Notes under the pieces: generated by a model
Told to the model about the DNA's origin: nothing
What the model saw: the letters and a program-made list of their open reading frames with translations, nothing else
Database searches by the model: none
Part shown: positions 675 to 1,593 of the stretch, one piece after another
Layout: every line of letters begins with the position of its first letter
How positions within the stretch are numbered: the stretch's first letter is position 1
Program-made: the position numbers and the translations under genes
DNA from: Escherichia coli
GTDB lineage: Bacteria; Pseudomonadota; Gammaproteobacteria; Enterobacterales; Enterobacteriaceae
Direction: 5' to 3' (one strand)
Assembly (NCBI RefSeq): GCF_003334335.1
Contig: NZ_QOWQ01000002.1
Length of the DNA: 64,000 nucleotides

Positions 675-1593
675 GAATCTTGACCTTTTTTGCTGTTATC
701 GCCACTCCCTGCCGTGGAAGTCAGCTTAGAACAATGTACTCCCCCAGGACGGTGTTTTGAAGGTCTGCAGAATAAGATTTTGCCAGAGGGGAAGGCTCGA
801 TTGTGCTATTAATAACTTAATAATGACAAAATAATGAGGTGTACATGCTTTACATGCAATGTTATATAGTGAATTGTTCTGATTCTTAATTGTAAGTCTG
901 GTTTTTTTATCTGTAAGATAATTGTGTGAAAATGCCTCATTTAAGAATTCACTAATGAAACGCGATGATGATATTTCCTCATTACGGAGAGTTTAACTGC
1001 GTGATGATTTCCGAGGTGTCGCAATGGGGGCAAGGTGTGAAACTATTGTTAAGCGGAATTAATGAATGAGGATGATGCTAATTAATTATTATTTAATATT
1101 CAAAAAGGTTTTGATGTGCTTATTAATAATAGAAGATTACTTTGCCTAACATAACATAACTTTGCATCAGATAATTCGCAATGACCCTTATAAATAAAAG
1201 GTTTTTGGGGTAAAATGCTCGGATAAATGACGGATCCCTGCTCTTGATGCCGCCTCACCATTGCTGTTGGTACGTGTTCGCGTATGACCAGCGATGCTGC
1301 ACGAGAGTGGAACAAGGACTCACATTTACATTTATACAAACACGCGCATGTCATAAATAGAAAAGAGTGAGTAACTTAATAGATATGCGATCCCTGAAGA
1401 TATATTCTGTGATCTACTTCAGGCATTATAACGGAACAATGTGAGTCGCTTTTTTAGTGCAACTCATATGCATTTTTACTTTCGTCCGGGTTCCGGATGA
1501 AACTGCCAGGGAGGCACATTACAAATGGAATTGCTTGTTTGTGTGTGCACAGCATTAACCAGCTCAGTATGAGCCGCCAGTAAGTGATAATAT

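Follow-up and report, generated by a model that had tools for sequence, protein, structure and literature searches.

LrhA, a LysR-type regulator, stands above flhDC, type 1 fimbriae, and RpoS/RprA and, according to recent reports, CRISPR-Cas. The DNA in front of its gene in Escherichia coli K-12 has been described as a '920 bp-long lrhA-alaA' spacer and was placed beside csgD-csgB in a group of long spacers bound by multiple factors (Shimada et al. 2014, PMC3946193). [quoted passage not shown] 2023 eLife, PMC10578931), and Hfq co-precipitates fragments of this leader of 150 and 350 nt (Bilusic et al. 2014, PMC4152368), while an lrhA mRNA of ~1.5 kb is visible in northern blots only in an hfq mutant, where its level rises (PMC4152368). 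RIL-seq links the leader to the sRNAs UhpU, ArcZ, RprA, and McaS; an lrhA-lacZ translational fusion is repressed by UhpU, ArcZ, and RprA, and the pairing of UhpU with lrhA has been proven by compensatory mutation. McaS gave the most RIL-seq chimeras, yet lrhA-lacZ remained unchanged, leading the authors to suggest that McaS itself may be inhibited (PMC10578931). Thus, the start of lrhA transcription, Hfq binding, repression by sRNAs, and the UhpU site have a basis in published experiments.

The stretch analyzed here, a window of 64 kb, is a segment of the E. coli chromosome in reversed orientation relative to MG1655. The gap of interest spans positions 675-1593, exactly 919 bp, and is gene-free. 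It lies between the 5' part of alaA, encoding a glutamate-pyruvate aminotransferase (1-674, minus strand, start codon 674-672), and the coding sequence of lrhA (1594-2532, plus strand, ATG at 1594), beyond which nuoA starts at 3163. The MG1655 counterpart of the gap (2,406,642-2,407,560) differs at two bases, positions 808 and 844, and its RefSeq annotation holds zero features, ncRNAs included. The GC content is 38.4% (0.384) compared with 51% for the whole window and drops to 0.313 between 801 and 1222; only 2.9% of all 919-bp segments across the 64 kb equal the gap in AT-richness. This gap and its neighbor between lrhA and nuoA exceed all other ORF-free gaps of the window in size. The short palindromes present in 675-1593 are unremarkable. 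An earlier note on this DNA had called the gap unusually long and AT-rich, which the coordinates and composition confirm. It had also placed both divergent promoters there, along with what was probably a long lrhA leader under post-transcriptional control; the promoters are supported by published work and by conserved -35/-10 pairs, the leader by the 371-nt 5' UTR, and the control by Hfq co-immunoprecipitation and by UhpU, ArcZ, and RprA repression. Taken as a whole, the gap is with high probability a divergent-promoter control region, of which the right-hand 40% forms the long lrhA leader and serves as an Hfq/sRNA platform lowering LrhA synthesis, while the left and middle parts hold the alaA promoter and protein sites.

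A genome scan for LrhA yielded 80 Enterobacteriaceae loci (L006-L085), and the gaps were aligned using MAFFT. The alaA gene lies divergently upstream of lrhA in 79 of the 80 loci, and the gap measures 764-1140 bp in every species. The N-terminal 224 amino acids of AlaA are 94-100% identical across 79 species, while LrhA diverges much faster in the same genomes (74-94% identity); even in L006, the GTDB representative named 'E. coli', LrhA identity is just 94%. The alignment displays four conserved blocks, namely ~700-775 with the alaA promoter and a 5' hairpin, 1035-1100, 1155-1216 with the lrhA promoter, and the final stretch (80 nt) of the leader. Between them lie two fast-evolving stretches, 776-1034 and 1223-1514, which are near-unalignable between genera. 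The first of these, very AT-rich, separates the control module of alaA from that of lrhA and includes hexamers resembling promoter elements; its identity to the E. coli base averages 0.20-0.45 over 79 species and just 0.60-0.66 within Escherichia.

Such DNA could be read as a functionless relic of foreign or decayed sequence in the AT-rich middle, with the size of the gap being accidental, as suggested by its GC content of 0.31, its fast sequence turnover, and the IS1 insertions and IS1-mediated deletion found in the gap of some strains. Yet, the two -35 elements stand 408-431 bp apart in 75 of 80 sequences spanning many genera, none of the 5,426 complete E. coli genomes lacks the gap (5,384 of them cover 80% or more of its length), 79 species also have it, and no repeat or mobile-element signature was detected in it; moreover, the neighboring lrhA-nuoA gap is equally length-conserved. 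A relic is accordingly very unlikely, and a maintained control region remains the preferred reading. Conservation of length is nevertheless no special trait of the alaA-lrhA gap and was rejected as such, as the 630-bp lrhA-nuoA gap (2533-3162) is tighter still, with an interquartile range of 626-631 bp in 74 species, and the neighborhood therefore simply retains long regulatory spacers. Published Term-seq 3' ends in the lrhA-nuoA gap lie at 2563, upstream of the lrhA terminator hairpin (~2576-2614), and at 3153, 10 nt before nuoA.

Two strains illustrate how IS1 has altered the locus. In the pig isolate NT1N31 (locus L086, NZ_CP075480.1), IS1 resides inside the lrhA 5' UTR at window position 1340-1350, ~120 nt past the transcription start site (TSS), where it probably uncouples lrhA from promoter or leader control. 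Strain SCPM-O-B-12142 (locus L087, NZ_CP144928.1) still has alaA, plus 167 bp of the adjoining gap (to ~841), after which IS1 lies beside elaD fragments; here, lrhA is deleted and apparently the whole nuo operon too.

On the alaA side, a predicted core promoter occupies 733-761 on the minus strand, consisting of a -35 element TTCAAA (761-756), a 17-nt spacer, and a -10 element TACATT (738-733). Both hexamers are invariant or nearly so across the 80 Enterobacteriaceae sequences, while the spacer varies in sequence and is 17 nt long in 80/80. From this arrangement, alaA transcription is predicted to start at ~726, giving a leader of ~52 nt. A different alaA promoter, TTAAGA-17-TATAAC, was predicted based on SELEX (Shimada et al. 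2014, PMC3946193); it is located at 889-861 on the minus strand in unconserved DNA and is distinct from TTCAAA-17-TACATT. Judged by conservation, the latter is probably the alaA promoter rather than the SELEX-predicted site. At approximately +6 of the predicted alaA mRNA, a stem-loop ACUUCC-ACGGCA-GGGAGU (704-721, minus strand, read 721 to 704) is found. Across 80 sequences, its ACGGCA loop and closing pairs never vary, and pairing extends over the inner 6 bp. Covariation is seen at one stem pair (AU 50, GC 14, GU 11), and another alternates between UG (40) and UA (33); 81% of the alignment cells are paired, compared with 32-63% in a control with the partner slid. No published function for this hairpin at 704-721 was found in the literature, and it could possibly stabilize the 5' end of the mRNA or act as a binding site.

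Upstream of lrhA, the distal block GTGAAAnnATTGTTAAGCnnAATTAATGA ... AATTAATTATTATTTAATATT (1035-1100), ~125-190 bp before the lrhA TSS, displays an identity of 0.53-0.69 over 79 species compared with 0.24-0.28 in its flanks. Its conservation is independent of reading frame, and the block is presumed to be a site for a transcription factor or nucleoid protein. Consensus scans of the gap for CpxR, Lrp, OmpR, CRP, IHF, Fis, and LTTR boxes gave nothing convincing, the sole mildly interesting match being an Lrp-like 15-mer at 768-782 adjoining the alaA -35 element. A 32-nt direct repeat (953-984 and 1060-1091, TAATGAA..GATGATG..) has copies that are 72% identical and 107 bp apart, one of them lying within the distal block; it may be due to chance or represent a duplicated binding site.

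Two tiny ORFs pointed out by the earlier note lie in this part of the gap. Both exist, one of 13 codons (MKRDDDISSLRRV, 955-996, plus strand) and one of 21 codons (MISEVSQWGQGVKLLLSGINE, plus strand), the latter spanning 1004-1069 instead of 1006-1071 and thus having been placed 2 nt off; its 3' half overlaps the conserved distal block. As they are 150-270 bp upstream of the lrhA TSS, they are outside the leader. In addition, they fall in the least conserved stretch, and in E. albertii and another Escherichia species they have either no start codon or extra stops. The 955-996 ORF lacks its ATG and contains internal stops in L006 and L007; L006, L007, L009, L013, and L021 have stops in, and no start codon for, the 1004-1069 ORF. 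Neither are ORFs commoner than in dinucleotide shuffles, with 17 ORFs of at least 13 codons versus 14.0 ± 2.7, and 8 of at least 21 codons versus 8.1 ± 2.1. Both tiny ORFs are taken to be chance ORFs and are the weak part of the earlier note, which also overlooked the longest ORF, 84 codons on the minus strand (1354-1100). As an antisense gene, this ORF was rejected because it is broken in sister species and within chance, at least 84 codons being reached in 22% of shuffles.

A third candidate, a 28-codon upstream ORF (uORF) at 1497-1583, lies within the leader and ends 10 nt before the lrhA AUG. It could be argued that a small protein with a function, or else a regulatory leader peptide, is made from one of these three short ORFs, as the ORFs are present in the sequence and the uORF spans the sRNA sites, stops just short of the lrhA start, and has its start codon at the aligned position in 15 of 80 species. 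However, the start is missing in the other 65, the length of the uORF ranges from 13 to 30 codons, and the indels in its alignment are not multiples of three; it is kept in Escherichia and Citrobacter only and was rejected as a gene. With the ORFs at 955 and 1004 upstream of the TSS and disrupted in sister species, and with ORF numbers and longest ORF equal to shuffles, a function for any of these short ORFs is extremely improbable. A small protein gene in the gap was likewise rejected, its possible ORFs being neither intact in relatives nor commoner than chance.

The lrhA core promoter (1188-1216, plus strand) consists of a -35 element TTATAA (1188-1193), a 17-nt spacer, and a -10 element TAAAAT (1211-1216), and fits the published TSS, A1223 being the seventh base after the -10 element. 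The -35 hexamer is TTATAA in 65 of 80 sequences, the -10 hexamer is TAAGAT, TAGGAT, or TAAAAT in 69 of 80, and the spacer is 17 nt in 79 of 80; a conserved CAGATAATTCGCA lies directly upstream of the -35 element, at 1168-1184. The -35 element is poor and the -10 element good, and the promoter is therefore probably activator-dependent. A generic promoter and terminator scan gave no enrichment over shuffles and missed both the alaA and lrhA core promoters, which match just 8-9 of 12 consensus positions. The promoter pair listed for lrhA by Shimada, CTGCCA-16-TATGAT (PMC3946193), has no exact match in the window.

Several proteins are reported to act on the lrhA control region, including Lrp (ChIP binding and activation), CpxR (binding), OmpR (ChIP signal), and LrhA itself through autoregulation. 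For H-NS, repression was reported by a later paper, while the table of Shimada (PMC3946193) does not flag H-NS at this spacer. Compared with an H-NS-silenced spacer of the csgD-csgB type, the gap has the AT-rich tract (GC 0.31), and protein binding comes from the literature, with mixed reports for H-NS and uninformative consensus scans. The distal block and the lrhA core promoter are the putative targets of these proteins.

The lrhA 5' UTR of 371 nt runs from A1223 to 1593 on the plus strand, as given by the text of PMC10578931 and its reporter primer SM079, which starts with ATAAATGACGG / ATAAATGACGGATCC, that is, at window position 1223 (1594 - 1223 = 371). Transcription hence starts at 1223, far upstream of the lrhA start codon and not within ~50 bp of it, as also supported by the -35/-10 pair 7 nt upstream of A1223 in 79 of 80 sequences. 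RNA 3' ends mapped by Term-seq (Adams et al., PMC7815308) are found at 1302 and 1308 (MG1655 2,406,933 and 2,406,927), corresponding to leader fragments of ~80-86 nt, and at 1544 (MG1655 2,406,691), 50 nt before the AUG, corresponding to a fragment of ~322 nt. The end at 1544 was scored 3.7 as an intrinsic terminator and does not depend on Rho (PMC7815308). Within the gap, published 3' ends are confined to the lrhA leader, with zero in 675-1222 on either strand (PMC7815308), and the generic scan detected no terminator-like site across 675-1593. An independent sRNA gene in the gap was rejected, as there is no terminator-like site, 3' end outside the leader, or ncRNA annotation.

The two sides of the leader differ in conservation, the first ~290 nt having an identity of 0.22-0.46, while the last 80 nt (1515-1593) are 100% identical within Escherichia, and the motifs AAAnGGAATTGCTT, CACAGC, and AGTGA therein are nearly invariant across the family. 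It could be speculated that the leader is less an sRNA platform than a structured cis-acting sensor, for which a riboswitch, a thermosensor, or an attenuator bound by protein would be examples. Pointing in this direction, the E. coli leader folds better than shuffles (minimum free energy z = -2.6), 1317-1326 and 1438-1447 form a perfect 10-nt long-range helix, and the 3' end at 1544 has the terminator score given above. Excess structure is however not consistent among relatives, the folding z averaging -1.06 in 40 species and reaching +0.59 in E. albertii, and RNAalifold finds 0 consensus pairs in the conserved 3' part of the leader in 78 species. As the sequence of the central leader is also unconserved, and an Rfam scan of 400-3300 at E ≤ 1 gave no relevant match, only chance miRNA-like ones, a cis-sensor is highly improbable, and the sRNA platform remains the favored view of the leader.

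Within the conserved 3' part, the UhpU pairing site is located at 1570-1586 (-24 to -8, plus strand), where the duplex amounts to -13.0 kcal/mol. The published compensatory mutation, lrhA-M1, corresponds to C1578G (-16), as located by comparing the gBlock sequence with window positions 1571-1580. The site adjoins the ribosome-binding region, a position which fits a block of translation. For the other sRNAs, the exact sites can be proposed as candidates. The ArcZ site would be CCAGGGAGG (1506-1514, -88 to -80, plus strand), whose complement is found at the 5' end of processed ArcZ, giving a duplex of -17.7 kcal/mol. The core CACAGCA (1548-1554, -46 to -40, plus strand) complements the UGCUGUG seed common to RprA and McaS and is the candidate site for both, with duplexes of -13.0 (RprA) and -15.5 (McaS) kcal/mol. 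In unbiased scans, the best duplexes of RprA, ArcZ, McaS, and UhpU were within the range of 60 dinucleotide shuffles, and another unbiased scan of sRNA-leader duplexes gave long-loop artefacts. Failure to beat shuffles is usual for short seed pairings. Since the published sites do not rise above shuffles, the assignment of ArcZ, RprA, and McaS rests on complementarity and published RIL-seq, not on statistics. A further conserved leader motif, GGAAUUGCUUGUUUGUGUGUG (1527-1547), is similar to, and not complementary to, the RprA/McaS seed region AAUUGCUGUGUGU; together with its downstream partial complement CACAGCA, it may form a local hairpin, which could rival the sRNAs for pairing.

The leader fragments themselves raise another possibility, namely that those reaching to 1302/1308 (~80-86 nt) or to 1544 (~322 nt) persist as stable RNAs on Hfq and, besides their role in cis, serve as trans-acting decoys or sponges of, for instance, McaS. 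These 3' ends are abundant in three conditions in Term-seq, the 150- and 350-nt bands are Hfq-enriched while full lrhA mRNA is barely detectable (PMC4152368), and McaS tops the RIL-seq chimeras without an effect on lrhA-lacZ, the authors hinting at McaS inhibition (PMC10578931). Nevertheless, conservation of the leader is poor over its 5' 290 nt (identity 0.22-0.46), no terminator-like hairpin is present at 1302, no trans target is known, and the fragments may be mere Hfq-protected decay intermediates, making a trans-acting role unlikely. The same low probability applies to an extended version, in which titration by the fragments 1223-1302/1308 and 1223-1544 would affect McaS and perhaps also RprA or ArcZ, while the distal block (1035-1100) and the alaA hairpin (704-721) would mark further regulators. 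If the fragments do titrate McaS, the lrhA locus would be both a receiver and a sender of sRNA signals.

Returning to the gap as a divergent control region with an sRNA-controlled lrhA leader, its probable organization is as follows. The ~100 bp beside alaA carry a compact predicted sigma-70 promoter, conserved throughout the family, and a short predicted leader that opens with a stem-loop, and ~260 bp of fast-evolving, very AT-rich DNA separate the alaA and lrhA modules. The distal block and lrhA core promoter come next, and it is here that LrhA itself, Lrp, CpxR, OmpR, and H-NS reportedly act. The 371-nt leader starting at A1223 serves as an Hfq-bound landing pad for sRNAs, with UhpU pairing at -24 to -8 and probably blocking translation initiation, and ArcZ and RprA likely pairing 40-90 nt before the AUG to lower LrhA synthesis too. 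Hfq destabilizes the whole lrhA transcript, while leader RNAs with their 3' ends at 1302/1308 and 1544 build up. As LrhA is a repressor of flhDC, the leader ties together motility, RpoS, and surface or envelope signals, and the lrhA control region is a convergence point of motility, envelope stress, and stationary-phase signals.

The coordinates, promoter motifs and their conservation, the block structure, and the absence of coding or conserved structure are direct observations. Among them, the family-wide block map, a conserved alaA promoter candidate unlike the SELEX one, and the negative ORF and structure results are new. The comparative map is a modest practical aid for dissecting the locus, as 4 of ~8 segments are constrained and the tiny ORFs are negligible. 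The role of the gap has already been documented for this exact sequence, and no new biology therefore emerges from it; the gap is real and ordinary, with everything essential already published.

Compared with known systems, the E. coli K-12 lrhA 5' UTR and alaA-lrhA spacer (PMC10578931, PMC4152368, PMC3946193) is the same locus, separated by 2 SNPs and sharing the TSS, sRNA sites, and Hfq-bound fragments, and there is no essential difference from the K-12 lrhA literature. In genera outside the 80 loci, the Serratia alaA-pigU region, Pectobacterium and Photorhabdus hexA, and Yersinia rovM likewise have the orthologous regulator after a long spacer common with alaA; in Serratia, transposon insertions in the alaA-pigU spacer raise expression of the regulator (PMC10810281). 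Among E. coli mRNAs, the leaders of rpoS (567 nt), csgD (148 nt), and flhDC (198 nt) are also long, Hfq-bound 5' UTRs of global regulators targeted by multiple sRNAs. While most of the lrhA leader is unconserved outside Escherichia, in contrast to these leaders, and the reported sRNA effects on lrhA are all repressive, with no activating anti-antisense mechanism known as for rpoS, the lrhA region resembles them in being an unusually long, AT-rich, and multi-factor intergenic region, and ArcZ, RprA, and McaS act on rpoS, csgD, and flhDC as well.
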